From NCBI GenBank assembly GCA_963841735.1, contig CAWJDT010000005.1:190944-254943 (forward strand): 64,000 nt of DNA, given 5' to 3'. The position numbers and the translations under genes were made by a program. This stretch comes from an uncultured Actinomycetes bacterium (GTDB lineage Bacteria > Actinomycetota > Thermoleophilia > RBG-16-64-13). This document shows positions 27,252-46,012 of this stretch, in pieces. Numbering within the stretch: the first letter of the stretch is position 1; every line of letters starts with the position of its first letter. The notes under the pieces were generated by a model. That model was not told the DNA's origin. It did not search any database and worked only from the letters and a program-made list of their open reading frames with translations.

Positions 27252-27424
27252 TGTTCCGCCCTTTCCTGTGCACCTGGTCCGCGAGCCGACGCGCTCCAAG
27301 GAACGCAGGGCGATGCTGGATTTTAGCGCCCAAGCGGCGCCCTGTGGTTCTGCCGTGGATAACGCGGCGCCTCTCCCCCGCGCCCGAGGCCAGGCTGGAC
27401 GGCACGCTGCGGCCGCAGGCGCCC

Positions 27425-27483
27425 GCTAGGTGGCGCGCACCGGCGCTCTCCGGCCCGCGGGGCCCTCGCTAGGTGGCGCGCAC
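27425..27483. repeat. direct duplication of the 3' end/stop region of the cluster-A esterase-RCC1 gene (GCTAGGTGGCGCGCAC x2, 43-nt spacing)
   Basis: Copies at 27425-27440 and 27468-27483; the second contains the TAG stop and the last codons (..PVRAT*). Confidence 0.5.
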
Positions 27484-29853
27484 AGGCCCCAGACGCCCGT
27501 TCCTGGCATTGCCCCATGCCCAGATGGTGCCGTCCCTGCCGAGGGCGAAGTTGTGATTGAAGCCGGTGTAGATCTCCCGGATGTCCGTCAGACCCAAGGC
27601 GCGGACCGGCGACCTGCTGCCGTCCAGGCTGCCTGCCCCCAGGACTCCGCTTCCCATCTGCTTGTTGTAACCCCAGGTCCACACACTGCCGTCTGCCTTC
27701 AGAGCTACCGTATGGTTCATTCCCGCCGTGATCTTCGCCACGCCTTCCAGCCCATCCACCCTCCTGGGATGCACAACAGTCGTAAAGAACTCCGGATTGG
27801 CATGGGGATCGTTTGGATCGATCTCAGGCATATATTCGCCGAGGCCCAGCTCTCCGTGACGGTTGAGTCCCCAGCTATGCACGGTGCCGTCGCTCTTTAG
27901 CACCGCCGTGAAGCAGCGGCCTTCCGCCGCGCCATTGACCCCGGTCAGGTAGCCGGTGGCATCGGACTTGTCCAGCGACTTGAAGGGCAGTGTGGTACCC
28001 GGACCGTGGCTAGCCACTCCCTTCCCTATCTGCCCGTATTCCCCGTCGCCCCAGCAGCGGATGGTGCCATCGCTCTTCACCGCGACAACGGTGCGCACAC
28101 CGGCCTCCAGATGCACCACATCCGTCAGAAATCCGCTCGCGTCATCGGGATCTTTGACCTGGCTGGGCTCGTGACTCCTAGTGTAGGTGCCGTTGCCAAA
28201 TTGCCCGTTGATGTTGGCCCCCCAGGCCCACACGGTGCCGTCCTGCTTCAGCGCGACGCCGTAGCTGTCGCCGGCATCGATCTGCCTCACCGTGGAGAGA
28301 CCCCCGATCACAACCGGCGCCGTATGGCGCTTTGTGGTGTCGGGGTCCCCCATCTGGCCGCAGTTGTTGCTCCCCCAGCCGTAGACGCTTCCATCTGCCG
28401 TGAGGGCGAGGCTGAAGTTGTTTCCCGCAGCGACCTGCACGATATCTTTCAGACCCTCTACCTGCACGGGAGTGTTCTGATCGGAGAACGCGCCGCACCT
28501 GCCGTTGCCCACCTGGCCGGTGCAGTTGAAGCCCCAGGCGAACACGCGCCCCTCCTCCAGCAAGGCCACGTTATGCCGGTTGCCGGCGGCGATCTGCTTG
28601 ACCTGCGACCCGTCGAACCCCAAGTTGACCATCACAGGCACGTGTTCGGCGGGCATGTTGTATTTGTAGGCCTCGGCCCAGGGCTCCGGATTCACATGAG
28701 AGAACAGCCAGTCGCGCACAGCCTCGTTGGTAATGGCGGGCCGCGCACCGAATTCGTGAGCCCAGCCGCCCAAGATGCTGCCCTCCCGATACAACGTGTG
28801 CAGAGTGTGCCCGCCTTTGGCCAGTTGCTCCTTGGCCATGCGGACGGCCGCCTCTCCACGCAACGACCCGTCCCAAACAGCCCGGTTGATGACGGCGCCG
28901 GCGCTCTCCAGCGTCTCCATGTTGTCAACGTTGCCGGGCATCGCCTTGTCGTCGTCCTCGCCGTGAAAGACCCAGAGGTTGTGGTCTTTCAGCACCTCGA
29001 GTTCCTCATAGTTGCTCTGGCCCGCAAAAACGATGCTGGCGGCGAACATCCTGTAGTACCGTTTGCTCGCTTCCCAGGACGACATCCCCCCCATGGAGAA
29101 GCCGGTGCAGTAGAGGCGGGTGCGATCCACGCTGTACTGCTCGAATAGGGAGAACATCAGCCCGCAGACGGCATCGAACACGCCCGTCATCTCATATGTG
29201 TCGGGATCGATCCAGTCGCCGTCGATGGGGCATTGGGGAACGAAGACGAAGCAAGGATGCTTCTTCTGCTCTTCTTCCGTCGCCCAGATCACACCGTTCA
29301 AGGAACACAGCATGCTCTTGAGGTTGTTGTTGCCCTTCTCGCCGCCGCCGTGCCAGTACAGAACGAACGGGTACTTCTTGTCCGGCCGGTAGTCCCTGGG
29401 CACGAACAATGAGTAGGCGACGGTGGTACCGTTCACGGGGTCCCGGTACGAATCCTTCTTGAACTGGTCGAACTCCAGGTTTGCGCCGTCCTGCACCTCG
29501 ACATGCTCCATCCAGGGACTGCAGACCCCTTCGTCGGCATAGACGACATCTTTGAGCTGACGCACGTCATAGGCGATTCTGACTCTCTCGTTCACCTCCC
29601 AGTGGAAAGGGAGCGTGGTGGCCGCCTTGTCGGACGGATCCATCTCCACGATCACGTAGCGTCCGTCATGCCCGCGCCCGTCTGGGTCCTGCGCCGCCTG
29701 CTCATTCGCGTAGGCCCTCAGGATCACCCTGCTGCTCACCGAGAACGATTCGGCGCCCAGGTCGGCGTTGCATACCGGCTGCGGGTACTCGATCGCGATG
29801 GCGACATTCTTTTCGCCGTCTTCCATCACTCGGTGGATAGCAAGGATATTCAT
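27469..29853 (-). CDS. fusion protein: N-terminal ~150-aa unknown domain + alpha/beta-hydrolase (esterase, GxSxG) + C-terminal RCC1-repeat beta-propeller; no signal peptide (cluster A)
   Basis: Probable start MNILAIH at 29853 behind AGGAGA; the listed ORF extends to 29877. Esterase motifs LYWHGGGE and GFSMGG. Multiple RCC1 repeats (GxNxxGQ(V/L/M)G(N/D)G...PV). Terminal gene of the ABC operon. Confidence 0.8.
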   Translation of the reverse strand: MNILAIHRVMEDGEKNVAIAIEYPQPVCNADLGAESFSVSSRVILRAYANEQAAQDPDGRGHDGRYVIVEMDPSDKAATTLPFHWEVNERVRIAYDVRQLKDVVYADEGVCSPWMEHVEVQDGANLEFDQFKKDSYRDPVNGTTVAYSLFVPRDYRPDKKYPFVLYWHGGGEKGNNNLKSMLCSLNGVIWATEEEQKKHPCFVFVPQCPIDGDWIDPDTYEMTGVFDAVCGLMFSLFEQYSVDRTRLYCTGFSMGGMSSWEASKRYYRMFAASIVFAGQSNYEELEVLKDHNLWVFHGEDDDKAMPGNVDNMETLESAGAVINRAVWDGSLRGEAAVRMAKEQLAKGGHTLHTLYREGSILGGWAHEFGARPAITNEAVRDWLFSHVNPEPWAEAYKYNMPAEHVPVMVNLGFDGSQVKQIAAGNRHNVALLEEGRVFAWGFNCTGQVGNGRCGAFSDQNTPVQVEGLKDIVQVAAGNNFSLALTADGSVYGWGSNNCGQMGDPDTTKRHTAPVVIGGLSTVRQIDAGDSYGVALKQDGTVWAWGANINGQFGNGTYTRSHEPSQVKDPDDASGFLTDVVHLEAGVRTVVAVKSDGTIRCWGDGEYGQIGKGVASHGPGTTLPFKSLDKSDATGYLTGVNGAAEGRCFTAVLKSDGTVHSWGLNRHGELGLGEYMPEIDPNDPHANPEFFTTVVHPRRVDGLEGVAKITAGMNHTVALKADGSVWTWGYNKQMGSGVLGAGSLDGSRSPVRALGLTDIREIYTGFNHNFALGRDGTIWAWGNARNGRLGPVRAT

Positions 29854-29869
29854 AGTCTTTGGTGGTCTC

Positions 29870-30901
29870 CTATTCATCGGTTCTGCTTGCGTCTGTGTGG
29901 CGAGGTTCTTCGCCCCCTGAGTGGCGCCAACCCGCGGGCCGGGAACCCGGCACGTTGATCTCGCTCACCCGGCAGCACAGCACGTGGTGATGAGGTTCCA
30001 CTTCCTCCATCACCTGACGCTCTTGACATCTCTCTTGCGCGTAGGGGCACCTGGCCGCGAACCGGCAGCCCGGCTTGGGGTTGATGGGTGACGTGAGTTC
30101 GCCCTTGAGTTCGACTCGCTTCATGGGATGGTCGATATCGATGGAGGGCACCGCGGAGAGCAGGGCCTTGGTGTAGGGATGCATCGGCCTGGCGAAGAGG
30201 CCTTCTGAAGTGCTGGTCTCAACGAGTTGGCCGAGGTACATGACGCAGATGTCGTCGGATATGTGGCGTACGACCGACAAGTCATGAGTCACGAACATAT
30301 AGGTGAGGCCAACCTCGTCCTGTAGGTCCATGAGGAGGTTGAGTATCTGAGCCTGTATGGACACGTCCAAGGAGGACACGGGCTCGTCGCACACCACAAA
30401 AGCTGGGTTGAGGGCGATAGCGCGGGCTACACCGACCCTCTGCCGTCTACCACCGTCCAGTTCGTGCGGATATGCGTTGCGCAGGCGCTGGTCGATACCA
30501 ACCAAGTCCATGAGCCTGGTGACCTCGGTTGCCAACCGTCCCCTGCCAAAGCGCCCGGACAGCTTGAGGGGCTGTCTGATGATCTCCTCCACACTCCGTC
30601 TGGGGTTGAGCGAGGAGTAGGGATCCTGAAAGATGATCTGCATATCCGACCGTAGGCCGCGCAGCCCGCGCCCCTTAGCCTCCGTGACGTCCTTGCCCTC
30701 AAAGAGTATCTGGCCGTCGGTTGAATGCTGGAGGTGGATCATGGTGCGCCCAAGGGTGGACTTGCCGCAGCCCGACTCACCTACTACGCCCATGGTCCGA
30801 CCCTTTTCTATGGAGAAGGAGACGTCGTCCACAGCGTGCAGTAGGCCGGTGCCCACCCGGAAGTACTTCTTGAGGTTACGGACTTCGATCAAGGCCGCCA
30901 T
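29870..30901 (-). CDS. ABC transporter ATP-binding protein (DppF/OppF-like) (cluster A)
   Basis: Walker [13 protein letters not shown] signature, Walker [12 protein letters not shown] and the C-terminal oligopeptide-transporter Cys-rich extension. Confidence 0.85.
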   Translation of the reverse strand: MAALIEVRNLKKYFRVGTGLLHAVDDVSFSIEKGRTMGVVGESGCGKSTLGRTMIHLQHSTDGQILFEGKDVTEAKGRGLRGLRSDMQIIFQDPYSSLNPRRSVEEIIRQPLKLSGRFGRGRLATEVTRLMDLVGIDQRLRNAYPHELDGGRRQRVGVARAIALNPAFVVCDEPVSSLDVSIQAQILNLLMDLQDEVGLTYMFVTHDLSVVRHISDDICVMYLGQLVETSTSEGLFARPMHPYTKALLSAVPSIDIDHPMKRVELKGELTSPINPKPGCRFAARCPYAQERCQERQVMEEVEPHHHVLCCRVSEINVPGSRPAGWRHSGGEEPRHTDASRTDE

Positions 30902-30902
30902 G

Positions 30903-31889
30903 TCATTCCTCCGAAAGCGCCGGGTAGAGACAGCGGCAGCGATGTCCGGGCGCGATGTCGGCCAAGGGGATACTCTCGCCTCTGCACTTGTCTGTCGCTC
31001 GCGGACAGCGAGGATTGAACCGGCAACCGTCCGGCAGGTTCGAGGGATCAGGCATAAGACCCTCGATGGGCTGAAGTCTTCTGGAATCCTTGGACATGCT
31101 GGGCAGCGAGGCGAACAGGCCCAGCGTGTAAGGATGCGCCGCGCGCTTGAAGATGTCGCGCTTGCTGCCGTGCTCGATGATCTCGCCCGCGTAGATAACC
31201 GCTACGTCGTCGCAGACCTCGGCGACTACACCCAGATTGTGGGTGATCATTATCATGGCGGTGTTGAGCCTGTCCCTGAGGTTGCGGATCATCTCGAGCA
31301 CCTGGGCTTGGATGGTCACGTCCAGCGCGGTGGTGGGCTCGTCGGCGATGAGCAATTCAGGATTGCAGGCCAGCGCCTCGGCTATGACCACCCGTTGTCT
31401 CATGCCGCCCGAGAACTCGTGGGGGAACTGCTTGAACCGCTCCGCCGGAATACCGACCATCTCCAGCATCTCTGTGGCGCGTCGCTCGGCGTCCACGCGG
31501 CTGACCGCGTTGTGCAGGCGGACGGCCTCGGCAATCTGTTCGCCCACAGTCATGAGGGGGTTGAGCGCCGTCATAGGGTCCTGGAAGATCATCGATACCT
31601 TCTCGCCTCTGATCCTGCGCATGTCCTTCTCGGGCAGGCCCAGAAGGTCCTCGCCGTCCAGGATGATCTCGCCGTCGGCGACCCGAGCCGTAAACTCGGG
31701 GAGTATTCGCATGATGGTCTTCGCAGTCGTGGTCTTGCCGGCGCCCGTCTCTCCTACCAGCCCAAGGGTCTTTCCACGCACCAGGTCGAAAGACACGTCG
31801 TTCACCGCGTGTACGATGCTCTTGCCCGAGCGGTACTCGACCTTCAGGTTCCTGACCGACAAAAACACGTCGTTACCGTTGTTCACCAA
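30903..31889 (-). CDS. ABC transporter ATP-binding protein (DppD/OppD-like) (cluster A)
   Basis: Walker [10 protein letters not shown], signature SGGMRQRV, Walker [12 protein letters not shown]. Confidence 0.85.
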   Translation of the reverse strand: MVNNGNDVFLSVRNLKVEYRSGKSIVHAVNDVSFDLVRGKTLGLVGETGAGKTTTAKTIMRILPEFTARVADGEIILDGEDLLGLPEKDMRRIRGEKVSMIFQDPMTALNPLMTVGEQIAEAVRLHNAVSRVDAERRATEMLEMVGIPAERFKQFPHEFSGGMRQRVVIAEALACNPELLIADEPTTALDVTIQAQVLEMIRNLRDRLNTAMIMITHNLGVVAEVCDDVAVIYAGEIIEHGSKRDIFKRAAHPYTLGLFASLPSMSKDSRRLQPIEGLMPDPSNLPDGCRFNPRCPRATDKCRGESIPLADIAPGHRCRCLYPALSEE

Positions 31890-31902
31890 GGCCTTACCCT
31901 CC

Positions 31903-32766
31903 TCATCGCTTCATCTTGGGGTCAAGCGCATCACGTAGGCCGTCCCCGAAGATGCTCACGGCGAGAACCGTGATCACGATGGCAAGACCTGGGAAGAGGA
32001 TGATGTGCGGATGAGCAAGGACGCTGGCGATACCTTCAGTGACCATGGCGCCCCATTCGGGTGTCGGGGGGCGTACGCCGAAGCCTAGGAAGCTCAGCGA
32101 TGCGGCCACCAGAATGGTGCCCCCTATGGCCGTGGTGGTGTGCACTATCAGAGGCGACAAGGTGTTGGGCAGGATCTCCGAGAACATGATGCGCATCTTG
32201 CCGCTGTTTATCGACTCGGCCGCTTCTACGTATTCCCTGGTCCGTTCTCCCAAGATCTGTCCACGGGTGATCCTGGTTGCCGGTACGATGCCTCCCACGG
32301 TGAGGGCGATGACGGTCTTCCAGAAGCCGCCCCCCAAGACGGCCGCGATGAGGATAGCTATGAGGATGCCCGGAATAGCCTGCAAGACGTCCATGAAGCG
32401 CATGATGCTGTTGTCGATCCATCTGCCGAAGTAACCCGCGAAGGCGCCAAAGACCACTCCGATGATGGTGCTGAGCAGCGCACCGGCGAGCCCGAGAACT
32501 AGGGAGTACCGGCCGCCGTAGAGCAACCGGGTGAGGATGTCGCGTCCCTGCTGGTCGGTGCCGCAGAGGTGCTGCCAAGAGGGGCCCAGGTTCGCGTTGT
32601 TGAGATCCATCTTGGCGGGGTCGTAGTGGGTGAGCAACGGAGCCAGCAAGCACAGCAACACGATAATGAACAGAAGAGCCAAACCGGCGACGGCGAGCTT
32701 GCTGTGGAATACACGTATGAGGGTCTGCAGGGCCAGACTGCGTCTCTGTGGATGGCTGGTGGTCAT
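31903..32766 (-). CDS. ABC transporter permease (DppC/OppC-like) (cluster A)
   Basis: 6 TM; BPD_transp_1 EAA-like loop YVEAAESINSGKMRIMFSEILPN. Overlaps the upstream permease by 4 nt. Confidence 0.85.
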   Translation of the reverse strand: MTTSHPQRRSLALQTLIRVFHSKLAVAGLALLFIIVLLCLLAPLLTHYDPAKMDLNNANLGPSWQHLCGTDQQGRDILTRLLYGGRYSLVLGLAGALLSTIIGVVFGAFAGYFGRWIDNSIMRFMDVLQAIPGILIAILIAAVLGGGFWKTVIALTVGGIVPATRITRGQILGERTREYVEAAESINSGKMRIMFSEILPNTLSPLIVHTTTAIGGTILVAASLSFLGFGVRPPTPEWGAMVTEGIASVLAHPHIILFPGLAIVITVLAVSIFGDGLRDALDPKMKR

Positions 32767-33710
32767 ACCCTCGCGTCTCCCTTGTACTGAGCCTTTATGC
32801 GAGGATCGACGAACCCATAGGCTAGGTCGGTAAGTAGCATGACAACCGTCGTGATGAGCGACAGAAACACGACCACGCCTTGGACTATGGGGTAGTCACG
32901 GTTCATGATGGCGTTCATCAGCAGCAGCCCCAGTCCAGGGATGGCGAACACCATCTCGATGATTATCAGACTGGTAAGGACCACGGCGAACGAGAAGCCG
33001 GTGACGGTGATCACTGGTATCAGCGCGTTAGGCAGCACGTGCCGGTAGATGACGCGTCGCTCCGAAGCCCCCTTGGCGCGAGCGCTCTGGACGTAGTCGG
33101 CCCTGAAGGTCTCCAGCACGCTGGAGCGCATCTGGCGGGTCACAATGCCTATGCCCCCAAGCGAGGCGGCGATGATGGGTATCACGTAGTTCTTCCAGTT
33201 GCCTATGCCGAAGCCCGGCAGCCAGTGCAACTTGACGGCAAACAGCACCACCAGCTCAACGGCCAGCCAATAGCCGGGGACCGCGAACCCAAGCATGGCG
33301 ATGAACAGACTCAGGCCATCACGAGTCTTGCCTTGGTGGGTGGCGGCCATGACACCCAGCGGAACGCCGACGACGGTGCCTAGGAGCACGCTGATGAATC
33401 CGATCAGCATAGTCCGAGGCAGCCTTTCCAGGATCTGCCCGGTCACAGGCAGACTGCGCTGATAGGAGACCCCGAGGTCGAAGTGGAGAAAGGCCCGGTT
33501 CAAGAAGTGGCCGAGCCGAACGATGTACGTTTCGTCCAACCCCAGTTGGTGACGCTTGGCCTCCAAGTCCGCTGCTTTTGCGCCGGTGCCCAGGATGAGT
33601 GTTGCGGGATCACCAGGCACGAAGTACATGATGGTGAAGATTATGATGGCCGAGAAGAAGACCACGAAGATCATCATCAGCAGCCGTTTCAATATGTATT
33701 TCGCCATCAT
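32763..33710 (-). CDS. ABC transporter permease (DppB/OppB-like) (cluster A)
   Basis: 6 TM; conserved loop YVQSARAKGASERRVIYRHVLPNALIPV. Confidence 0.85.
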   Translation of the reverse strand: MMAKYILKRLLMMIFVVFFSAIIIFTIMYFVPGDPATLILGTGAKAADLEAKRHQLGLDETYIVRLGHFLNRAFLHFDLGVSYQRSLPVTGQILERLPRTMLIGFISVLLGTVVGVPLGVMAATHQGKTRDGLSLFIAMLGFAVPGYWLAVELVVLFAVKLHWLPGFGIGNWKNYVIPIIAASLGGIGIVTRQMRSSVLETFRADYVQSARAKGASERRVIYRHVLPNALIPVITVTGFSFAVVLTSLIIIEMVFAIPGLGLLLMNAIMNRDYPIVQGVVVFLSLITTVVMLLTDLAYGFVDPRIKAQYKGDARV

Positions 33711-33737
33711 CTACCTCGTTACTGGCGGGCGACATGG

Positions 33738-33767
33738 GAGTGGCGCGGTCTTGCGACCGCGCCACTC
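33738..33767 (-). other. perfect 13-bp stem / 4-nt loop hairpin between the SBP and permease genes (intra-operon RNA stabiliser or attenuator)
   Basis: gagtggcgcggtc-ttgc-gaccgcgccactc. No U-tract follows on the transcribed strand. Confidence 0.4.
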
Positions 33768-33817
33768 GCGTTCGCCCGAGGATCTGTTGCTAGGTCCTAG
33801 GCCTTCTTGGGTCGGTG

Positions 33818-35455: not shown

Positions 35456-35546
35456 CTATTCAACCCTCCTGCTTGTGGAACATGTGGCACGGTGAACCGT
35501 AGCAACCGCCATCTCCCTATGGAAATTCGATTCCGGCATGGATGCT

Positions 35547-35559
35547 TTCCAGAATGGAA
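35547..35559. promoter_or_regulatory. T-N11-A palindrome TTCCAGAATGGAA (candidate LysR-type operator) 92 nt upstream of the cluster-A SBP start
   Basis: Perfect dyad TTCCA-N3-TGGAA. A paralogous copy lies at the identical offset before the cluster-B SBP. Confidence 0.3.
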
Positions 35560-35800
35560 TGGGCCTGTTCAGCGGCACAGCGGCACGGCGGACTGGAGGG
35601 CGGTGTCCGATGGACGCGCCGAGTCGGCCGCCGAGCTTGAGATTGCCGGCGCGCCTCAGCGAGGCGGCTATGCTTGCTGGTCCCCCAAGCGGCCTCCTAC
35701 GGCCTGCCGACGGACCTAGTGATACCGGGCGCAAGCAAGAGAGACAGTGAAGCGCAAACCGAAGGTTGTGAGGCCCGCACCGCGCCCCGCGGCGCCCACG

Positions 35801-35858
35801 ATAGGTGGCGCGCACCGGCGCTCTCCGCCCCGCGGCGCTCCCGCTAGGTGGCGCGCAC
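35801..35858. repeat. same 3'-end duplication downstream of the cluster-B esterase-RCC1 gene (aTAGGTGGCGCGCAC / GCTAGGTGGCGCGCAC)
   Basis: Copies at 35801-35815 and 35843-35858. Conserved between the paralogous clusters although the surrounding sequence has diverged. Confidence 0.5.
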
Positions 35859-38228
35859 AGGCCCCAAGCGCCCGTTCCTGGCATTCCCCCAGGCCCAGAT
35901 GGTCCCGTCCTTGCCGATGGCGAAATTGTGGTTAAGGCCGGTGGAGATCTCCCTGATGTCGGTCAGGCCCAGGACGCGGACCGGCGAGTTGCTCCCATCC
36001 AGGTTGCCCGCCCCCAAGGCCCCGCTGCTCATCAGCTTGCTGCAGCCCCAGCTCCATACACTGCCGTCTTCCTTCAAAGCGACCGTGTGGTTCATCCCGG
36101 CTGCGATCCCAGCGACACCTTCCAGCCCGTCGATCATCCTGGGATGCACCACCGTCGTCAAGAAGTCCGAGTTCATGTGGGGATCAGACACATCTATCTC
36201 CGGCTGGTAGTCGCCCAGGCCAAGTTCCCCATGGCGGTGCAGCCCCCAACTGCACACGGTGCCGTCGTTCTTCAGAACCGCCGTGAAACAGCGTCCTTCC
36301 GCGACGCGGCTGACGTCGGCCAGGTGTCCGGTCGAATCGGACCTGTCCAGGGCCTTGAAGGGCAGCTTTGTGCCCGGACCGTGCATGGCGAGTCCCTTGC
36401 CTAGCTGTCCGTATTCCCCGTCACCCCAGCACCGGATGGTGCCGTCGGCCTTCAATGCGACTACAGTCCGCACGCCGGCTTCGACATGGACGACATCCGA
36501 AAGAAATCCTCCAGCGTCATCGGGGTCCATTACCCGGGCGGGCGCATGGTTTCTCGCAAAGGTCCCGTTCCCGAGCTGTCCGTTGACGTTGGCGCCCCAG
36601 GCACATACGGTGCCGTTCCGCATCAGGGCGACGGCATAGCTGTCTCCGGCCTCGATCTGGGCTGCCTCGGACAGACCATCGATCCGGACCGGCGCCGTAT
36701 AGCGCTTCGTTGTGTCGGCATCCCCCAGTTGGCCGCTACTGTTGCTGCCCCAACCGTAGACGCTCCCATCGGCCGCCAGGGCGAGACTGAAGTTGTTCCC
36801 CGCCGCGACCTGGACGATGTCTTGCAGGCCCTCCACCAGCACGGGAGTCTCCTGGCCGGAGAATGCGCCGCACTTGCCGTTGCCCACCTGGCCGGTGCAG
36901 TTGAAGCCCCAAGCAAACACGCGCCCGTCCTCGAGAAGGGCCACGTTGTGCCGGTTGCCGGCGGCGATCTGTTTGACCTCTGACCCGCCGAACCCTAGGT
37001 CGACCATGACAGGCACATATTCGGCAGGCACCGTATAGCCGTAGGACTCGAGTGAAGGGGTCGGATTCGCGTTGGAGAACAGCCAGTCCCGAACGGTCTC
37101 GTTGGTAACGGCAGGCCGCCATCCGAACTGATGCACCCAATCGCCCGAGACACTGCCTTCCCTGTAGAGGGTGTGCAGAATATGCCCGCCTCCTGCCAGT
37201 TGCTGCTTCGCCATTTGAACGGCGGCCGGCCCACGGAGAGATCCGTCCCACACCGCGCGATTGACGAAAGCGCCGACACTCTCCAGCGTCTCCAAATTGT
37301 CCACGTTGCCGGGCCCGGCCTTGTCGTCGTCCTCCCCGTGGAAGACCCAGAGGTTGCTGTCTTTCAGCACCTCGAGCTCCTCGTAGTTGCTCTGCCCCGC
37401 CAAGATGAGGGTGGCGGCGAACAACCCGCAGTACCGCTTACTGACTTCCCAGGCCGCCATTCCGCCCATGGAGAAACCCGTGCAATACACCCGGGTAAGA
37501 TCCACGCTGCACTTGTCGAGGAGAGAGACCATCAGCCCACAAAAGGCATCGAGCACGCCGGTCGTCTCGTACGTGTCCGGATCGATCCAGTCGCCCTCGC
37601 TTGGACATTGCGGCACGAGGACAAAGCAGGGGTGTTTCTTCTGCTCTTCCTCCGTGGCCCAGATCACGGCGTTCATCGTGCTGAGCAGGCTCTTGAGGTT
37701 GTTGTCACCCTTTTCGCCGCCACCATGCCAGTAGACCACCAACGGGTACTTCTCGCCGGGTTTGCAGTCTTTGGGAACAAAGAGCGCGTAGGAGAGGGCG
37801 GAGCCGTTGCTCGGGTCACGATAGAGGCCCGGCGTGAACCGGTCGAACTCAACATCGGCGCCGTTCTGGACCTCGACGTTCTCCGTCCAGGGCGCGCAGA
37901 TGTTCCCATCCGTATAGACGACGTCCTTGAGCTGGCTGACCTGGTACGGGATCTTGCGTCTCTCCTTCACCACCCACTCAAGGGGAAGGGTTCCCGCCGA
38001 GGCGTCCGCGGGATCCATCTCCACCACCACATAGCGGCCGTCGCACCCGATCCCATCGCCAGCCTGAGCCGCGTGGTCATTTGCATACACCTTCAGAATG
38101 ATCCTGCTGCTGACGGAGAAGCCATCGATGTCGAGCGTCGCGTTGAGTACCGGCTTGGGGTACTCCAACACAAGAGCGACATTACGTTCGCCGTCTTCCG
38201 TCACGCTGTGTATCGCAAGGATGTTCAT
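35844..38228 (-). CDS. paralogous unknown-domain + alpha/beta-hydrolase + RCC1-repeat fusion protein (cluster B)
   Basis: Probable start MNILAIH at 38228, directly after the upstream ATPase stop; the listed ORF extends to 38369. Roughly 75-80% identical to the cluster-A protein over its full length (estimated by eye, not computed). Motifs VVYWHGGGE, GFSMGG and RCC1 repeats are conserved. Confidence 0.8.
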   Translation of the reverse strand: MNILAIHSVTEDGERNVALVLEYPKPVLNATLDIDGFSVSSRIILKVYANDHAAQAGDGIGCDGRYVVVEMDPADASAGTLPLEWVVKERRKIPYQVSQLKDVVYTDGNICAPWTENVEVQNGADVEFDRFTPGLYRDPSNGSALSYALFVPKDCKPGEKYPLVVYWHGGGEKGDNNLKSLLSTMNAVIWATEEEQKKHPCFVLVPQCPSEGDWIDPDTYETTGVLDAFCGLMVSLLDKCSVDLTRVYCTGFSMGGMAAWEVSKRYCGLFAATLILAGQSNYEELEVLKDSNLWVFHGEDDDKAGPGNVDNLETLESVGAFVNRAVWDGSLRGPAAVQMAKQQLAGGGHILHTLYREGSVSGDWVHQFGWRPAVTNETVRDWLFSNANPTPSLESYGYTVPAEYVPVMVDLGFGGSEVKQIAAGNRHNVALLEDGRVFAWGFNCTGQVGNGKCGAFSGQETPVLVEGLQDIVQVAAGNNFSLALAADGSVYGWGSNSSGQLGDADTTKRYTAPVRIDGLSEAAQIEAGDSYAVALMRNGTVCAWGANVNGQLGNGTFARNHAPARVMDPDDAGGFLSDVVHVEAGVRTVVALKADGTIRCWGDGEYGQLGKGLAMHGPGTKLPFKALDRSDSTGHLADVSRVAEGRCFTAVLKNDGTVCSWGLHRHGELGLGDYQPEIDVSDPHMNSDFLTTVVHPRMIDGLEGVAGIAAGMNHTVALKEDGSVWSWGCSKLMSSGALGAGNLDGSNSPVRVLGLTDIREISTGLNHNFAIGKDGTIWAWGNARNGRLGPVRAT

Positions 38229-39202
38229 GATCCGCACCCCACCGACGCAACCGCATTTATCTCCCTCGCCCTGCAGCACAACGCGAAATGCTGGGGCTCT
38301 ATCTCCTCCAGCGCTTGGGGACTTTGGCACCTCTCCTCCACGTACGGGCATCTGGCCGCAAACCGGCAACCCGGCTTGGGATTGATGGGCGACGTGAGCT
38401 CGCCCGTCAGCTCCACCCGCTTCATGGGATGGTCGATGTCAATGGACGGGATCGCCGAGAGCAGAGCCTTTGTATACGGATGCAACGGCTTGTTGAACAG
38501 CTCCTTGGAGGGGCTGGTCTCAACCATCTGGCCCAAATACATAACGCAGATGTTGTCGGAGATATGGCGGACCACCGATAGGTCGTGCGTCACGAACATG
38601 TACGTCAGTCCAAACTCGTCCTGCAGATCCATAAGCAGGTTCAGGATCTGCGCCTGAATGGAGACATCCAGGGACGACACGGGTTCGTCGCAGACCACAA
38701 ACGCGGGATTGAGAGCGATAGCGCGGGCGACGCCAACCCTCTGCCGTCTCCCCCCATCCAGCTCATGGGGGTACGAGTTGCGCAGACGTTGGTCGATGCC
38801 GACCAAGTCCATCAGCCTCGTTACCTCCTTCTCGAGCTCCGCCCTCTTGAAGCGTCCCGAAAGCTTGAGAGGCTGCTGAATGATCTCCCCGATGCTTCGC
38901 CTGGGATTCAGTGAGGAATAGGGGTCCTGGAAGATGATCTGCATGTTGGTACGAAGCCGGTGCAGCTCCTTGCCCTCCACGTGCGTGACATCTTCACCGT
39001 CGAAGAGTATCTGACCGCCCGTGGGCTGCTGCAGATGGATGATCGTGCGTCCGAGCGTGGACTTGCCGCAGCCCGATTCACCGACTACACCCATCGTCCT
39101 GCCCTTCTCAACAGAGAACGTGACGTCATCGACGGCATGCAGCAGGCCGTGCGCCACCTTGAAGTACTTCTTTAGATTTCGGACTTCGACGCTGGCCGTC
39201 AT
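38225..39202 (-). CDS. ABC transporter ATP-binding protein (DppF/OppF-like) (cluster B)
   Basis: Paralog of 29870..30901 (GESGCGKST...[11 protein letters not shown]). Confidence 0.85.
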
Positions 39203-40182: not shown

Positions 40183-40198
40183 GAACGAGTCCCCCTTT

Positions 40199-41056
40199 TC
40201 ACTTCTTCATCTTGGGGTCAAGAGCATCACGCAGACCATCCCCGAAGAGGTTGACCGCAAGCACAGTGATCACGATGGCGAGCCCCGGGAACAGGGCGAT
40301 ATGCGGATAGTTGCGGATAAAGTTCCGACCCGCGGTGAGCATGGCGCCCCATTCCGGCGTCGGAGGCTGCACGCCCAGGCCGATGAAGCTGAGGGCCGAA
40401 GCCACCATGATCGTGCCGCCGACGGCCAACGAGGTGTGTACTATCAAAGGAGACAAGGTGTTCGGGAGGACCTCCATGAACATGATGCGCATCTTGCTGC
40501 AGTTGATCGACTCGGCCGCCTCCAGATACTCCTTGCTGCGTTCGGACAGAATCTGCCCGCGCGTGATCCGGATGGCCACCGGAACGCCTCCCACCGTGAG
40601 GGCTATGACCGTGTTGACAAACCCGCTGCCCAGAACCGTCGCGATGAGGATGGCGATCAGGATGCCGGGGATGGCCTGCAGCACATCGGTAGCGCGCATG
40701 ATGATGCTGTCCGTCCGTTTGCCAAAGTATCCGGCGTAAACGCCGAACACCACCCCAACGATGACGCTGAGTAGGGCACCGGCGATGCCGAGGCTGAGAG
40801 AATACCGGCCGCCGTACAGCACCCGGGTGAAGATGTCCCGACCCATATCGTCCGTGCCAAACAAATGGTGCCATGAAGGCCCTTGGTTGGAGTTCACGAG
40901 GTCCATCATTTCAAGCCCCTCGGGCGCGATCACAGGAGCCAGAAGACAGAGAACAGTGATGACAAACAGAGTGACGAAACCGACTATGGCGAGTCTGCTA
41001 TGGCATAGCCTGATCAGCGTCAGTACGTAAAGGCTCTGCTTTCTATTCCTAGCCAT
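40199..41056 (-). CDS. ABC transporter permease (DppC-like) (cluster B)
   Basis: Paralog of 31903..32766 (EYLEAAESINCSKMRIMFMEVLPN). Confidence 0.85.
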   Translation of the reverse strand: MARNRKQSLYVLTLIRLCHSRLAIVGFVTLFVITVLCLLAPVIAPEGLEMMDLVNSNQGPSWHHLFGTDDMGRDIFTRVLYGGRYSLSLGIAGALLSVIVGVVFGVYAGYFGKRTDSIIMRATDVLQAIPGILIAILIATVLGSGFVNTVIALTVGGVPVAIRITRGQILSERSKEYLEAAESINCSKMRIMFMEVLPNTLSPLIVHTSLAVGGTIMVASALSFIGLGVQPPTPEWGAMLTAGRNFIRNYPHIALFPGLAIVITVLAVNLFGDGLRDALDPKMKK

Positions 41057-41059
41057 CGG

Positions 41060-42004
41060 TCAACCCCTCGCTGTTCCCTTGTACTCAGCCTTGATGCGTG
41101 GGTCGACGAACGCATAGGCCAAATCGACCAGCAACATGACGAAACTCGTCATGAACGACAAGAAGATGACAGTGCCCATGATGATTGGATAGTCGCGGTT
41201 CATGATGCCTTGCATGAGCAAGAGCCCGATGCCGGGAATGGTGAACACCGTCTCGATGATGATGGAACCGGCGACGACGCCTCCGAAGCCATAGCCCACG
41301 ACGGTTATGACTGGAATGAGGGCGTTCGGTAGCATGTGCCGAAAGATCACGCGTCGTTCAGATGCCCCCTTGGCTCGGGAGCTCAGCACGAAATCGGCGC
41401 GCATGGTCTCCAACATGCTGGACCGCGTCATGCGGGTCGCAATGCCCATGCCCCCCAAGGATGCGGCAATGATAGGCAGCACGTAGTTCTTCCAGCCACC
41501 GATGCCGAAACCCGGGAACCAGTGCAGCTTCAGGGCGAACAGGACGACCAACATCAGCGCCAGCCAGAATCCTGGAATCGCGCCACCGATCATCGCAAGC
41601 ACGAGGCTGATCTGGTCCTGGATCTTCCCCTGGTGGATGGCGGCCCAGATGCCCAGCGCCACACCAACTACCGCTCCCACGATCGTGCTGACTACGCCGA
41701 TCAGCATCGTCCTCGGAAGTCTTTCCCAGATCTCACTCATGACAGGCCGGCCCCGCTGGTAGCCATCGCCCAGGTCGAAATGCAGAAACACGTCCTTCAG
41801 AAAGGTCCCCAACCGCAAAAAGTACGAGTGGTCCAGCCCCAGCTCGACGCGCTTCGCTGCCAACTGCGCAGGCGACGCGCCAGGTCCCAAGACCAGCACA
41901 GCCGGGTCGCCGGGCACGAAGTACATGATGCTGAAGATTATTATGGCGGCGAAGAAGACCACCAGGATCATCATCAGGCATCGCTTCAGGATGTACAGAG
42001 ACAC
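41060..42004 (-). CDS. ABC transporter permease (DppB-like) (cluster B)
   Basis: Paralog of 32763..33710. Confidence 0.85.
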   Translation of the reverse strand: MSLYILKRCLMMILVVFFAAIIIFSIMYFVPGDPAVLVLGPGASPAQLAAKRVELGLDHSYFLRLGTFLKDVFLHFDLGDGYQRGRPVMSEIWERLPRTMLIGVVSTIVGAVVGVALGIWAAIHQGKIQDQISLVLAMIGGAIPGFWLALMLVVLFALKLHWFPGFGIGGWKNYVLPIIAASLGGMGIATRMTRSSMLETMRADFVLSSRAKGASERRVIFRHMLPNALIPVITVVGYGFGGVVAGSIIIETVFTIPGIGLLLMQGIMNRDYPIIMGTVIFLSFMTSFVMLLVDLAYAFVDPRIKAEYKGTARG

Positions 42005-42064
42005 CTTCTACCTCACTGTTCGCACGTTGGTCCGCATACCGATGCGATGGGTTCTGGCTACATC

Positions 42065-42092
42065 AGTGGCGCCGCCTTTCGGCGGCGCCACT
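42065..42092 (-). other. perfect 12-bp stem / 4-nt loop hairpin between the SBP and permease genes (cluster B)
   Basis: agtggcgccgcc-tttc-ggcggcgccact. Positional equivalent of the cluster-A hairpin. Confidence 0.4.
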
Positions 42093-42119
42093 GCTTTCCT
42101 CGATTCGGGCTGGACTAGC

Positions 42120-43748
42120 TCAGTGCTGCGTGTACGTGCAGCCACCGGGGATGATCCACATGTGGTCGCTCAGTACGAAGTCGCTGATCCAACTAGGATA
42201 GACGATGTTGATGTAGTTGCCGCCAATTCCGTAGGCGTAGGCCTTGGAGTTGATATAGGCCTGGCCCGCCTCAACTGTCTCGGCGCTGTGCGTCGCCATG
42301 GAGCGGCCCGCGGCGATGACTGCCTGCAACTCAGGGTCCTGGATGAAGTTGATCGGACCGGTCGGGCTGTAGGTATCGGCGAGGTTGCTCCAGGCGCTAA
42401 CAACGTAGTCGCTGGAGAACGTGGGCATATGCTGGAGGTCCCACTTGGCCGGATCCGTAGCGTCCGCGAAGTAGCTTCCACCGTTTTCCGCAAGCAGCTG
42501 GGCCTCGATGCCGATGGCGGTCAGGTAGCCCTGGACGATTTCCATGATCGCCTTGAATGTGGGCTGCTCGATGACCAGGAGTTTCAGCGTAAGCGGGTTG
42601 TCCTCGGTATAGCCGGCCTCAGCGAGAAGCGCCTTCGCCTTTTCGGGATTGTAGTTCCAGTAGTCCGCATCCGCCCAGGCGGGGTTGTAGTCGGGAGAGC
42701 TGACGTTACCGATGCACTTAGAAAGGACGGCCTCAGGGCCAAACATCTTCAGAACGAGCGCCTTCGCGTCGATCGCATAGAAGATGGCCTCTCTGACGCG
42801 CTGATCGCTGCACGGGCTGGTGGGATCACAGTTGGGGTTAAGCACATGGATCAAGAATTCGGGGAAGGTGTACACGGTGTACTTCGACGCGTCGGTGAAG
42901 TAGTCGGTGTCGGCCAAGCCGATATTCTGGCAGATGTCGATCTGACCGGTCTGGAGAGCCATTGTCATCTGGCTGGCTTCCAGGATGACAAGGTAGTTGA
43001 TCGTCTGGACGTTCGCCTTCTCAACCGGGGTCAGCAGGCTTGCATCGGTCTTCCAGTACCCGTCCCATTTCTCAAGGGTAAGTGAGGAACCGGCAACATA
43101 CTTCGCCACCTTGTATGGCGCAGTGGTCACAGGACTGGTCTTCATGCCCTCGGGGTTGGCCTCCCAGGCGACCTGGGTAACAAGACCGAGGTTCGTGAAC
43201 ACGTCGGTCAGGTCGTTTGTGAAGAGGTCATGGGTGAAATGGATGGTGAAGGTAAGGTCGCCGGTCTGCTCGACACTCTTGATGCTGGCCGCATACCGAT
43301 TCTTGCTTTCGACATGTTTGTTCAGGCCCCAGACGGCATCCGTCGCGGTGAAGGCGTTGCCGGCCTGGTCCTTGATGTTGTCGTACAGGGTGACGTTGAC
43401 AGTCTGCAGATCAGCCTGCTCATACGACTTCATCAAGATACCGCTGAAACTGCCGTCCTTGTTCAAATAGCCCAACACCTGTACGAACTGCGGATTCACA
43501 GTGTTGTTCTTCATTCCCAGCGAGGTGTATGGATCCAGGTCCATCGGGTCGCCGTCGATGCCGACATTAACCACATCCTGGATGTAGGCGGCCGCTACGG
43601 TCGTTGGGGTTTCGGATCCGGTGGTCGGGGTTTCGGATCCGGTGGTCGGGGTTCCTCCCACGGTGGTTGTCGTGGCACCGTCGCCGCACCCTGCAACCAT
43701 GCCAAGGATCACGGCCAGAACGACAAGAACAAGAACGTTTCTCTTCAT
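42120..43748 (-). CDS. ABC transporter substrate-binding lipoprotein, family 5 (cluster B)
   Basis: Paralog of 33818..35455 (LVLVVLAVILGMVAGC lipobox). Confidence 0.85.
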   Translation of the reverse strand: MKRNVLVLVVLAVILGMVAGCGDGATTTTVGGTPTTGSETPTTGSETPTTVAAAYIQDVVNVGIDGDPMDLDPYTSLGMKNNTVNPQFVQVLGYLNKDGSFSGILMKSYEQADLQTVNVTLYDNIKDQAGNAFTATDAVWGLNKHVESKNRYAASIKSVEQTGDLTFTIHFTHDLFTNDLTDVFTNLGLVTQVAWEANPEGMKTSPVTTAPYKVAKYVAGSSLTLEKWDGYWKTDASLLTPVEKANVQTINYLVILEASQMTMALQTGQIDICQNIGLADTDYFTDASKYTVYTFPEFLIHVLNPNCDPTSPCSDQRVREAIFYAIDAKALVLKMFGPEAVLSKCIGNVSSPDYNPAWADADYWNYNPEKAKALLAEAGYTEDNPLTLKLLVIEQPTFKAIMEIVQGYLTAIGIEAQLLAENGGSYFADATDPAKWDLQHMPTFSSDYVVSAWSNLADTYSPTGPINFIQDPELQAVIAAGRSMATHSAETVEAGQAYINSKAYAYGIGGNYINIVYPSWISDFVLSDHMWIIPGGCTYTQH

Positions 43749-43838
43749 ACTATCGACCCTCCTGTTTGGAAACTTGTAGCATCATGAACCGTACCAACCG
43801 GCTTCTTCATATGCGAGTTCAAATGTGGCACCAATAGT

Positions 43839-43851
43839 TTCCATAGTGGAA
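43839..43851. promoter_or_regulatory. T-N11-A palindrome TTCCATAGTGGAA (candidate LysR-type operator) 91 nt upstream of the cluster-B SBP start
   Basis: Dyad TTCCA-N3-TGGAA at the same offset as in cluster A. The adjacent 5'UTR segment (atgaaccgtaccaaccg) is also conserved. Confidence 0.3.
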
Positions 43852-43927
43852 CCAGTGTCATCGACGGCGCAAAAAAGGACGACAGTCAACCGGTCATCCT
43901 CCGAGGTCCGGCACAGAAGTCAGTCGA

Positions 43928-44797
43928 CTATCCGATGGACTCCGCCACGAATTTCAGGAAGAGCTTTGCTCCAGACGACAGCTGGGCATCCATCCGATAG
44001 CAGATGGATACCTCGAAGGGAGCCTTCGGAGTGATCTCGACAATCGACACACCGTCCGTATTGATTGCCGCCACGGAGTGCTCTTGGATCAGAGAGATCC
44101 CCATCTCCTGTCGGACGAGATCGACCAAGTCACTCCCATGAAGCCCGGTCATCACGGTCTTGGGAGTGAATCCCGCCTGCTGACATATGTCCAGGCACGA
44201 CTTGGTGTGCACGGCGTAAGGAGGCAGCATGACGAAATCCTCCGATTTCAACTCCTCCAGCGAGATCATCTTACGGCCGGCCAGCGGATGGGAGGCATAC
44301 AGCACGGCGACGAATACATCTGTGGTGTAGGGGATCGAGACGAAATCGCCGTCCGGATCCTCCAGGTTGCAGATGAAGGCGAGCTCGCATTTCCCACTGC
44401 GGAGCAGTTCCCTAACCTCACCCCGAACGTTACCCTCGATGGTGCTCAGCAGATAGTTCTTGTTGTTGGTACGGAAGTCGGTCAGCAGACCTGTCACCCG
44501 GTATTCCGTCCCGATGACGATGAGATTATCGGCGTCGTGCAGCTTGTTGTAGACGTCCTTCACGAAGTGGTCTTCGAGCATGACTATCTGCTTGGCATAC
44601 GGAAGGAGCAGCTTCCCGTATTCGTTCAGGACGATACCCTTGCCCGTTCGATCAAACAGGGGAGCGCCAAATTCTTCTTCCATGGACTTGACGTGCTTGG
44701 AGAGTGACGACTTGGACACGAAGAGCCTGCCCGCCGCCTCGCCGACGTTACAGAGCTGAGCCAGGACCGTGAATTCCCTGAGATATCTCGTATCCAT
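43928..44797 (-). CDS. LysR-family transcriptional regulator
   Basis: N-terminal HTH (REFTVLAQLCNVGEAAGRLFVSKSSLSKHVKSMEEEFGAPLFDR) plus a LysR substrate-binding domain. Start at MDTRYLREF; the listed ORF extends to 44821. Confidence 0.8.
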   Translation of the reverse strand: MDTRYLREFTVLAQLCNVGEAAGRLFVSKSSLSKHVKSMEEEFGAPLFDRTGKGIVLNEYGKLLLPYAKQIVMLEDHFVKDVYNKLHDADNLIVIGTEYRVTGLLTDFRTNNKNYLLSTIEGNVRGEVRELLRSGKCELAFICNLEDPDGDFVSIPYTTDVFVAVLYASHPLAGRKMISLEELKSEDFVMLPPYAVHTKSCLDICQQAGFTPKTVMTGLHGSDLVDLVRQEMGISLIQEHSVAAINTDGVSIVEITPKAPFEVSICYRMDAQLSSGAKLFLKFVAESIG

Positions 44798-44998
44798 CCA
44801 GCCACCCCGGTCAACCGACACAAAGGGGGATGTGCGCGAAACAACGCCGCTTCCCCGACTCCCTTGGGCAGCATCATATCAATTACGGGCGTGGTACTCG
44901 GTCGCATCCACAATGCGGCCGCGACCGCTCCCTGCGTACCGGCCTCGCGGTCGCCAAGCGTGTCCGCAGCGGCGAGGCTTCGGCCCGAAACAAGTCTG

Positions 44999-45868
44999 TT
45001 AAACGATCGACTCTCGCACGTGCTCCAGGAAGAGCTTCGCTCCGGACGACAGCGGGGCGTCCCTTAGATAGCAGATGGATATCTCGAAGGGAACGCTGGG
45101 GGCGATCTCGACCATCACTACGCCGTCCGTGATGATCGCGGAGGCGGAGCGTCCAAAAAGCAGGGAGATCCCTATCTTCTGCCGGACAAGATCAACAACG
45201 TCGCTCCCGCGGGAGCCGGTCATGACGATCTTCGGCGTGAATCCGGCCTTCCTGCATATGTCCATGCAGAAGCTGGTGTGCAGGGCATAAGGAGGCAGCA
45301 TGACGAAATCCTCCGATCGCAGCTCCTCCAGCAAGATCGTCCTACGGCCGGCCAGCGGATGTGAGGCATAAAGAACGGCGACGAACTGATCGGTTGTGTA
45401 GGGCGTCGAGACGAACTCCTGGTCCGGGTCGTCCAGGTTGCAGAGGAACGCAAGCTCACATTTTCCGCTGCTCAGCAGGGCCTCCGTCGTGCCCATGAGA
45501 TTGTCTTCAATGGTGCTGAGCAGGTAGTCGTGATTCTTGGTGCGGAAGTCCGTCAGCAGACTCGTGATGCGGTATTCCGTGGCGATGACGATGGTATTGT
45601 CGGCGTCGTGCAACTTGGTGTGAACGTCCTTCTTCAAGTGGTCTTCGAGCATGACCATCTGTTTGGCGTAGGGAAGAAGAATTCTCCCGTATTCGTTAAG
45701 AACGATGCCCTTCCCCGTCCGGTCGAACAAGGGCGCGCCCAATTCCTCTTCCACCGACTTGATGTGCTTGGAGAGCGACGACTGGGACATGAAGAGCTTC
45801 TCCGCCACCTCGCCGAAATTGCATACCTGGGCGAGGACCGTGAATTCCCTGATGTATCTCGTATCCAT
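44999..45868 (-). CDS. LysR-family transcriptional regulator (paralog of 43928..44797)
   Basis: Roughly 75% identical to the neighbouring LysR (estimated by eye, not computed). Conserved ~40-nt upstream element (...ccccgactcccttg...catcatatcaatt) is present before both genes. Confidence 0.8.
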   Translation of the reverse strand: MDTRYIREFTVLAQVCNFGEVAEKLFMSQSSLSKHIKSVEEELGAPLFDRTGKGIVLNEYGRILLPYAKQMVMLEDHLKKDVHTKLHDADNTIVIATEYRITSLLTDFRTKNHDYLLSTIEDNLMGTTEALLSSGKCELAFLCNLDDPDQEFVSTPYTTDQFVAVLYASHPLAGRRTILLEELRSEDFVMLPPYALHTSFCMDICRKAGFTPKIVMTGSRGSDVVDLVRQKIGISLLFGRSASAIITDGVVMVEIAPSVPFEISICYLRDAPLSSGAKLFLEHVRESIV

Positions 45869-46012
45869 CCAGCCACCGCCTACCGTTCACGCCCCAGGGC
45901 TGCCTGATGGCAGGAATGCACTGCGAACAAGGCCGTCTGGGGGCAACGCCGTTCCCCCGACTCCCTTGTCCGCCATCATATCAATTCGGGGAATCCTCCC
46001 CTCCGCGGCACG

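Follow-up and report, generated by a model that had tools for sequence, protein, structure and literature searches.

Two paralogous six-gene operons lie head to tail in a stretch of 64,000 nucleotides from an uncultured Actinomycetes bacterium (contig CAWJDT010000005.1 of assembly GCA_963841735.1, positions 190,944 to 254,943; this whole stretch is called the window below). Each operon, A and B, encodes an ATP-binding cassette (ABC) importer of the Opp/Dpp type and a protein in which an esterase-like domain is fused to an RCC1 β-propeller, and two paralogous LysR regulator genes, R1 and R2, are found beside them. Our analysis leads us to favour, with reservations, the view that these are two LysR-controlled modules that import and de-esterify ester-containing small molecules, the leading candidates being plant phenolic-acid esters or acylated glycosides. 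The general part of this view, import and de-esterification by two LysR-controlled modules, can be regarded as quite probable, and phenolic esters as the class of substrate are put forward tentatively. The esterase–propeller enzyme is the most interesting part of the locus, the transporter and the regulators being ordinary members of their families.

According to this proposal, each operon would be transcribed from its own promoter, bearing a LysR box of the form TTCCA-N3-TGGAA. The solute-binding protein (SBP), anchored at the cell surface, would capture an ester-containing small molecule, which the transporter, of the Opp/Dpp (PepT) type, would bring into the cell. The esterase domain of the fusion, of the EstA type and resembling CE1 and polyhydroxybutyrate (PHB) depolymerases, would then cleave the imported ester in the cytoplasm, and the substrate or the product would presumably be the co-inducer of the LysR regulator. 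Galloyl or hydroxycinnamoyl esters and tannin fragments are candidate substrates.

Both fusion proteins are 794 residues long, begin with MNILAIH and carry no signal peptide, and the enzyme is predicted from its sequence to be cytoplasmic. The first ~390 residues comprise an immunoglobulin (Ig)-like domain and an α/β-hydrolase, while residues ~400-794 form the RCC1 propeller. The Pfam family EstA_Ig_like is matched at E = 2.8e-21, and residues 3-306 of the cluster A protein match EstA from Thermotoga maritima (PDB 3DOH) at E = 6e-54. The hydrolase core is related to the CE1/Esterase_PHB family. An HGGG oxyanion motif, the G-x-S253-x-G motif, D301 and H366 show no variation among 21 aligned full-length homologues, from which we infer the activity of a serine esterase with a Ser253-Asp301-His366 triad. 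The fusion proteins of the window give no match to the NCBIfam tannase models tannase_A and tannase_B. In the C-terminal half, both RCC1 and RCC1_2 repeats are present, and the WD40_RLD model is matched with 276 bits against a cut-off of 150.

The AlphaFold2 model of the cluster A fusion (predicted local distance difference test 90.9, predicted template modelling score (pTM) 0.90) contains 27 strands in seven four-stranded blades. Searched against the PDB with Foldseek, it superimposes on EstA with a TMt of 0.86 and on UVR8, HERC2 and RCC1 with TMt values up to 0.85 (UVR8, 0.85), and no solved PDB chain was found by this search to span both the esterase and the propeller halves. The high pTM suggests that the propeller and the esterase could be held in a fixed arrangement. 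The propeller may have a role in substrate binding, as a lid or in oligomerisation. The full-length fusion is rare: a word-filtered search of 5.8 billion clusters returned ~22 proteins. Among the best 150 matches of an exhaustive search of representatives, three 50%-identity representatives match over the full length as one stretch, the other top matches being mainly giant multi-RCC1 proteins. Among the matches listed from a metagenome scan with the family alignment, there were only distant esterases of 24-32% identity. A literature search turned up no publication on this operon or on a protein that joins an esterase to RCC1 repeats.

The importer has the architecture of the Opp/Dpp (PepT) type, with a family-5 SBP, one OppB-like and one OppC-like permease, and two oligo_HPY ATPases; the permeases and ATPases of cluster A were scanned against Pfam, and those of cluster B were assigned by their 68-81% amino-acid identity to them. 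Both SBPs carry the lipobox VAGC followed by a Thr-rich linker, features by which they are predicted to be surface lipoproteins of the Gram-positive type. No component of the importer reaches the cut-off of any named NCBIfam equivalog (peptide, nickel, glutathione, opine), so the ligand cannot be read from homology. The top SBP match, Opp5A_nikA, scores 96-100 bits against a cut-off of 600, and DppA 33-48 bits against 1005. The nearest solved relative of the SBPs, the agropinic-acid binder AgaA (6HLX), is matched only at E = 8e-23. Since the SBPs are the most diverged component between the two operons (57% amino-acid and 71% nucleotide identity), the ligands of A and B are most likely related but not the same.

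An RCC1 domain is also associated with an Opp-type transporter in a second, independent instance. P0102 (616 aa, MDO5016692.1, from an Eubacteriales metagenome-assembled genome (MAG)) is an OppC-type permease in which an RCC1 propeller is inserted after the first transmembrane segment. We considered this protein as support for a docking of the fusion's propeller on the transporter and rejected it, the propeller of P0102 being probably located in an extracytoplasmic loop.

All 14 open reading frames (ORFs) of the locus are present at the coordinates of Table 1, in the order R2, R1, operon B and operon A. Unit A (35559→27413) and unit B (43851→35787) are colinear from end to end, and BLASTN aligns them in two blocks with E = 0, one of 5650 nucleotides at 70.8% and one of 2449 nucleotides at 77.7%. 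The homology begins exactly at the LysR-type box and stops ~56 nucleotides beyond the stop codons of the fusion genes, and the 227-nucleotide spacer between the units is unique sequence. Outside the SBPs, identity is 69 and 68% (amino acids) and 74 and 75% (nucleotides) for the permeases, 79 and 81% and 77 and 79% for the ATPases, and 74% and 79% for the fusion. The original prediction, made from the letters alone, had described two colinear six-gene paralogous clusters of roughly 80% nucleotide identity. ORF coordinates, BLASTN and Pfam domains agree with this description, and the pairwise alignment that it called for identifies the clusters as true paralogues rather than unrelated families; the identity had been put slightly high, the measured range being 71-79%.

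At the junction between the last ATPase gene and the fusion gene, the reading frames overlap by four nucleotides (ATGA) in operon B and in the relatives' loci L059 and L060, and are separated by a 16-nucleotide gap in operon A. The cluster A fusion ORF extends over 27469-29877, and its start at 29853, giving 794 residues, was taken from database homologues. The second ATPase of cluster A extends at its C-terminus 16-18 residues beyond its paralogue and the majority of its orthologues (323-327 aa); the orthologue in L058 has 347 residues.

The TTCCA-N3-TGGAA sequence, a T-N11-A site of LysR type, occurs twice in the 64 kb against 0.02 expected, once for each operon, and is a putative LysR binding site. 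The same box is found upstream of the SBP gene in L058, L059, L060, L062 and L077, and nowhere else in these loci except before a tannase gene in L059. In the relatives, a conserved GTGCCACAT-TGAAT stretch comes behind the box, along with a TACGGT-like hexamer; in the window, the stretch downstream of the box has diverged in operon A and differs from that of cluster B. A second conserved patch, AATTGATATGATG...CAAGGGAGTCGGGG, lies upstream of R2 with a copy upstream of R1, recurs upstream of Ra, one of the two LysR genes of L059, and probably represents a promoter or 5' leader. Past the 3' end of R1, a hairpin precedes a T-run. Generic promoter and terminator scans of the window gave results at chance level, and Rfam detected no RNA family in it.

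R1 and R2 share 74% of their amino acids, close to the ~75% of the original prediction, and 78.6-80.5% of their nucleotides; identity is 80% in the helix-turn-helix (HTH) domain and 71% in the effector domain, a pattern that would fit shared DNA recognition with different effectors. LysR regulators are commonly transcribed divergently from their target operon, an arrangement that is not obligatory; here R2, R1 and both operons all lie on the minus strand. The number of LysR genes equals that of boxed promoters in the window (2/2), in L059 (2/2) and in L058, L060 and L062 (1/1 each). In L077, a 7-kb JGI contig, B-type ATPase and fusion genes (79.8% nucleotide identity to window B) are followed by an unrelated transfer RNA methyltransferase gene, a gene with a Gly_transporter domain and a LysR gene 88% identical to R2 at the amino-acid level, and then by a boxed promoter and an SBP gene 81% identical to SBP_A. 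Because this R2 orthologue directly precedes an A-type cluster, and R1 directly precedes operon B in the window, A is probably under the control of R2 and B under that of R1. The idea of one LysR per cluster is thus backed by the synteny in L077 and by each cluster having its own box; the 80% identity of the HTH domains and the near-identity of the boxes would nevertheless allow cross-regulation. In L058, the single LysR gene (3225-4215) is split into ORFs of 270 and 58 residues by an apparent frameshift.

The trees, which are bootstrapped neighbour-joining trees computed from distances, indicate that the pair of clusters and the pair of regulators have different histories. In no bootstrap replicate (0%) do clusters A and B of the window form a clade, whichever gene or concatenation is analysed, and cluster A groups with the single clusters of L058 and L059 in 100% (concatenation); the A and B types would therefore have diverged before these lineages separated. 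For the regulators, R2 and the L077 regulator are sisters in 100% of bootstraps, and R1 groups with the LysRs of the B-type clusters of L060 and L062 in 0%, a value by which we rejected the arrival of R1 together with B as an old unit. The synonymous divergence (dS) is 1.07-1.66 for the transporter genes (saturated), 0.85 for the fusion genes and 0.69 for the LysR genes, and the ratio of non-synonymous to synonymous substitutions (dN/dS), 0.08-0.33, denotes purifying selection on all A/B and R1/R2 pairs. The regulator duplication thus looks younger than the A/B split, and local. The LysR pair would then not have arisen with the cluster pair, so the locus is not the product of a simple whole-unit tandem duplication. 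In both respects the phylogeny proposed in the original prediction has come out on its side, that is, in favour of an old split between the clusters and against duplication of the whole unit.

L059 deserves particular attention for its synteny with the window, which is seen at either end: upstream of Ra, the flank resembles that of R2, and downstream of the second regulator gene, Rb, the flank, including the box, resembles that of R1. In both loci the A-type cluster has an FMN reductase gene behind it. L059 has two adjacent LysR genes and one ABC cluster, which is the arrangement that the original prediction had named as contrary to it; yet the place of operon B is taken by a single gene with its own boxed promoter, which encodes a tannase, so that two regulators and two boxed promoters are kept. 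The tannase is of subtype B (NCBIfam equivalog NF041556; 456.6 bits, the cut-off being 300) and lacks a signal peptide. The two L059 LysRs group together (71%), and we rejected the positional orthology of Ra and Rb to R2 and R1 at the level of the protein sequence (0-6% bootstrap). As the flanks match by position, the L059 and window pairs could possibly reflect independent duplication or concerted evolution.

Linkage of the fusion gene to an ABC system of the Opp type, in most cases along with a LysR gene, is found in L058, L059, L060, L061, L062, L065 and L076. A genome scan returned one close relative, L001, which is the L058 locus, from a MAG named 'uncultured Actinomycetes bacterium'. L060 (UbiD only), L063 and L075 carry UbiD/UbiX genes for hydroxyarylic-acid decarboxylases at less than 10 kb from the fusion gene, and LpdBCD-like genes are near it in L063 and L075; in L063, UbiD and UbiX come with LpdD, and UbiD is VdcC-like (441 bits, below the cut-off of 650). 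Genes of glycoside hydrolase family 3 (GH3) directly follow the fusion gene in L062 and are close to it in L063; that of the window lies 2.3 kb off, on the other strand. It is because of the tannase in the B slot of L059, of the UbiD/UbiX(/LpdD) genes near the relatives' clusters and of the GH3 genes near those of L062, L063 and the window, that phenolic esters are proposed here. A further speculation, which we hold to be rather doubtful, is that the EstA–RCC1 fusion represents a new class of intracellular polyphenol-ester hydrolases, tannase- or depsidase-like and unrelated to the known tannases, whose propeller would bind the polyphenol or the glycoside. In that case, the linked Opp-type systems would be the first ABC importers devoted to fragments of hydrolysable tannins or to phenolic esters, and the two LysRs would discriminate two classes of ester.

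Several observations weigh against import and de-esterification of phenolic esters by two separately regulated modules. The window contains no tannase or UbiD gene, and TBLASTN with the L059 tannase found nothing in it; the tannase linkage is seen in one relative, and the UbiD and GH3 genes lie nearby and have no box. The L058 cluster is inserted between carB and carA and has no catabolic neighbours. The fusion is labelled 'predicted peptidase' at JGI, and the closest SBP relatives of solved structure have opines, glutathione or metals as their ligands. As to regulation, the near-identical recognition regions of the LysRs and the near-identical boxes might lead to cross-regulation at both boxes. 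Finally, the support for the placement of cluster B in the trees is only moderate (53% with L060 and L062), and R1 joins R2 and the L077 regulator at only 62%.

Among the other explanations, the one that survives best, and still seems rather unlikely to us, is the use of acylated oligosaccharides, in which acetylated or feruloylated gluco- or xylo-oligosaccharides would be imported, deacylated by the esterase and cleaved by the GH3 enzyme. The GH3 genes near or beside the cluster in the window, L062 and L063 fit this explanation, as does the relation of the hydrolase to the CE1/Esterase_PHB family. Around more distant fusion genes (~49% identity), YdjC, GFO/IDH/MocA and FMN_dh genes recur, with a PfkB kinase and a class II aldolase in addition in L075, and all of these except FMN_dh likewise speak for it. 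In T. maritima, the gene of EstA (TM0033) adjoins an Opp-family beta-glucoside transporter and a GH3 gene. However, the GH3 gene of the window lacks a box, is divided between two ORFs and runs in the other direction; from one locus to another, the GH3 genes share only 26-29% identity and are not orthologues, and the sole co-regulated extra enzyme seen is the tannase. The explanation also overlaps with the phenolic-ester proposal, galloyl-glucoses being acylated sugars.

A second explanation, distinctly less probable, is the salvage of peptides or depsipeptides, the importers being ordinary oligo- or dipeptide permeases and the fusion a peptidase that trims what they import. It would account for the Opp/Dpp-type components with their oligo_HPY ATPases and for the JGI name. 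Against it, the SBPs score far below the equivalog cut-offs of OppA, DppA and MppA (for DppA, 33 bits against 1005), EstA, to which the catalytic domain is homologous, is a characterised esterase, and the neighbouring genes of the relatives encode a tannase, aromatic-acid decarboxylases, GH3 enzymes and sugar-type enzymes rather than peptidases. Nothing in our analysis supports peptides or opines as substrates.

Very unlikely, in our view, is a recent in-place tandem duplication that would have left A and B redundant, with the same substrate and interchangeable LysRs. The head-to-tail arrangement of the units, their common box and 3' tail and the conserved HTH domains of the regulators (80%) would be expected from it, but A and B are never sisters (0%) and A is closer to clusters of other organisms, dS, at 0.85-1.66, has reached saturation, the SBPs share only 57% of their residues, and in L077 the A and B types are separated by unrelated genes. 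Least credible is the uptake of polyester oligomers (3-hydroxyalkanoate or similar) for cleavage by an intracellular oligomer hydrolase: the weak matches to the catalytic domain of short-chain-length polyhydroxyalkanoate (PHA) depolymerases (E = 4e-10 and 1e-13) and the 3HCDH, BKACE and acyl-CoA synthetase genes 7-10 kb away in L060 point that way, but these matches reach 40-51 bits against a cut-off of 150 and are limited to the common α/β-hydrolase core, and no PHA genes recur across the loci.

Table 1 Features of the two operons, their regulators and the adjoining FMN reductase gene; positions are those of the window.
Feature	Position	Strand	Evidence or remark
LysR regulator R2, 289 aa	44999..45868	-	HTH_1 + LysR_substrate
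LysR regulator R1, 289 aa from ATG at 44797 (ORF to 44821)	43928..44797	-	HTH_1 + LysR_substrate
Conserved patch AATTGATATGATG...CAAGGGAGTCGGGG upstream of R2, with copy upstream of R1 (probable promoter or 5' leader)	45944..45990; 44842-44889	-	48 nt, 85% identity
Palindromic box TTCCACTATGGAA (T-N11-A), operon B promoter (putative LysR site)	43839..43851	-	~92 nt upstream of SBP_B start
Cluster B SBP lipoprotein, 542 aa	42120..43748	-	SBP_bac_5 E = 1.7e-57
Cluster B permeases, 314 aa and 285 aa	41060-42004, 40199-41056	-	identity to cluster A permeases
Cluster B ATPases, 327 aa and 325 aa	39199-40182, 38225-39202	-	identity to cluster A ATPases
Cluster B esterase–RCC1 fusion, 794 aa (P0004)	35844..38228	-	EstA_Ig_like, RCC1, weak Abhydrolase_6
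Palindromic box TTCCATTCTGGAA, operon A promoter (putative LysR site)	35547..35559	-	~92 nt upstream of SBP_A start
Cluster A SBP lipoprotein, 545 aa	33818..35455	-	SBP_bac_5 E = 8e-50
Cluster A permeases, 315 aa and 287 aa	32763-33710, 31903-32766	-	BPD_transp_1 + BPD_transp_1_N; BPD_transp_1 + OppC_N
Cluster A ATPases, 328 aa and 343 aa	30903-31889, 29870-30901	-	ABC_tran + oligo_HPY
Cluster A esterase–RCC1 fusion, 794 aa (P0001)	27469..29853	-	EstA_Ig_like + hydrolase + RCC1
GC-rich 3' tail common to both units, marking the end of the repeat unit	A 27413..27468, B 35787-35843	-	BLASTN
FMN reductase gene downstream of cluster A, syntenic with L059	26630..27251	-	FMN_red E = 8e-19

The FMN reductase gene of the window aligns with its L059 orthologue in two frames at 78-87% amino-acid identity, 27251-27159 encoding residues 1-31 and 27175-26633 encoding residues 26-206. 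A frameshift near 27160-27175, close to the 5' end of the gene, is thereby indicated, and so either a pseudogene or an assembly error. The GH3 gene, β-glucosidase/xylosidase-like and on the plus strand, is split into an N-domain (24362-25507) and a C-domain (25559-26461) with a 51-nucleotide gap, and would be either a disrupted gene or a two-ORF arrangement.

In the relatives, a conserved protein of ~570 residues that belongs to no Pfam family always adjoins the fusion gene in the clade of ~49% identity, at L063 (12385-14100), L075 (12420-14135) and L076 (724-2427). It is 53-70% identical among the three loci and gives a weak α/β-hydrolase signal; FMN_dh is near it in all three, and YdjC and GFO/IDH/MocA in most. 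In L065 (GCA_902363555.1), a stand-alone EstA-type esterase of 393 residues (4382-5563) directly follows the ABC genes, and the esterase–RCC1 fusion gene (10001-12391) comes five genes on, after ceramidase-like, metallo-β-lactamase and unknown genes.

Elsewhere in the window, the minus strand encodes an OLD-family nuclease (AAA_15 + TOPRIM; 57367-59256), a SMODS nucleotidyltransferase resembling those of cyclic-oligonucleotide-based anti-phage signalling systems (CBASS; 59422-60303) and a DNA methylase (62065-63981), which likely form a defence island; nearby are large ORFs with no Pfam match (52532-54682 and 56123-57370). Also on the minus strand, the gene of an AbiEii-type nucleotidyltransferase toxin shares an overlap with the unannotated ORF upstream of it (9577-10467 and 10460-11314), in what looks like a type IV toxin-antitoxin pair. 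An insertion-sequence-type transposase (HTH + rve integrase core) is encoded on the plus strand at 18154-19053, and a stretch of lower GC content (0.58) lies between 16 and 18 kb. Cell-envelope genes occupy 20036-22303, 22331-23221 and 23256-23858 on the minus strand, encoding a 755-residue protein with three cell-wall-binding (CWB2) repeats, a YkuD L,D-transpeptidase and a CHRD-domain protein.

The route by which phenolic esters, tannin fragments among them, get into bacteria is poorly defined, and a conserved operon that combines an ABC importer with a cytoplasmic esterase is a concrete candidate for this uptake step, the more so since one relative co-regulates the operon with a TanB-type tannase. 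Should the substrate prove ordinary, the locus would be just a pair of paralogous nutrient-uptake operons. It also provides a case in which a local duplication of a regulator gene would serve an older, separately diverged paralogous operon.

Compared with known systems, the importer has the five-component architecture of AgaA, GsiB, NikA and DppA systems, including the OppC_N, BPD_transp_1_N and oligo_HPY domains, and differs from these in that its components lie below all equivalog cut-offs and its SBPs are predicted Thr-tethered lipoproteins of the Gram-positive type. For the proposed pathway as a whole, a parallel is the tannin system of Lactiplantibacillus plantarum (TanR, the tannase TanB, the gallate decarboxylase LpdBCD and the transporter GacP), whose regulator TanR is reportedly of the LysR type. 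TanB-type tannases are intracellular and act on gallate esters that are able to enter the cell (PMC8276758), and the tannase regulon of L. plantarum includes tanR, gacP and the gallate decarboxylase genes (PMC8276758, PMC8004764). The likeness consists in the regulator-controlled intracellular hydrolysis of imported gallate esters (PMC8004764, PMC8276758), and extends to L059, where a subtype-B tannase stands behind the same LysR box as the ABC operon. In contrast to L. plantarum, the window has no tannase or decarboxylase gene, its enzyme is of the EstA type, and an ABC importer takes the place of GacP.

The propeller shares with UVR8, the RCC1-like domains of HERC2, RCC1 and BLIP-II its seven-bladed fold and repeat signature (TMt 0.75-0.85), and differs from them in being fused to a bacterial esterase that is predicted to be cytoplasmic. 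The esterase half resembles T. maritima EstA (3DOH/3DOI) in its Ig-like and α/β-hydrolase domains at ~30% identity, with the GxSxG motif, the acidic residue and the His conserved. T. maritima EstA is secreted, whereas the proteins described here have no signal peptide, possess a C-terminal RCC1 propeller of 400 residues, and have genes that closely adjoin, or overlap with, the last of an importer's ATPase genes. What sets the locus apart from the known EstA-type enzymes and systems is the predicted cytoplasmic location, the RCC1 propeller, the tight linkage to the ATPase gene and the conserved putative LysR box.

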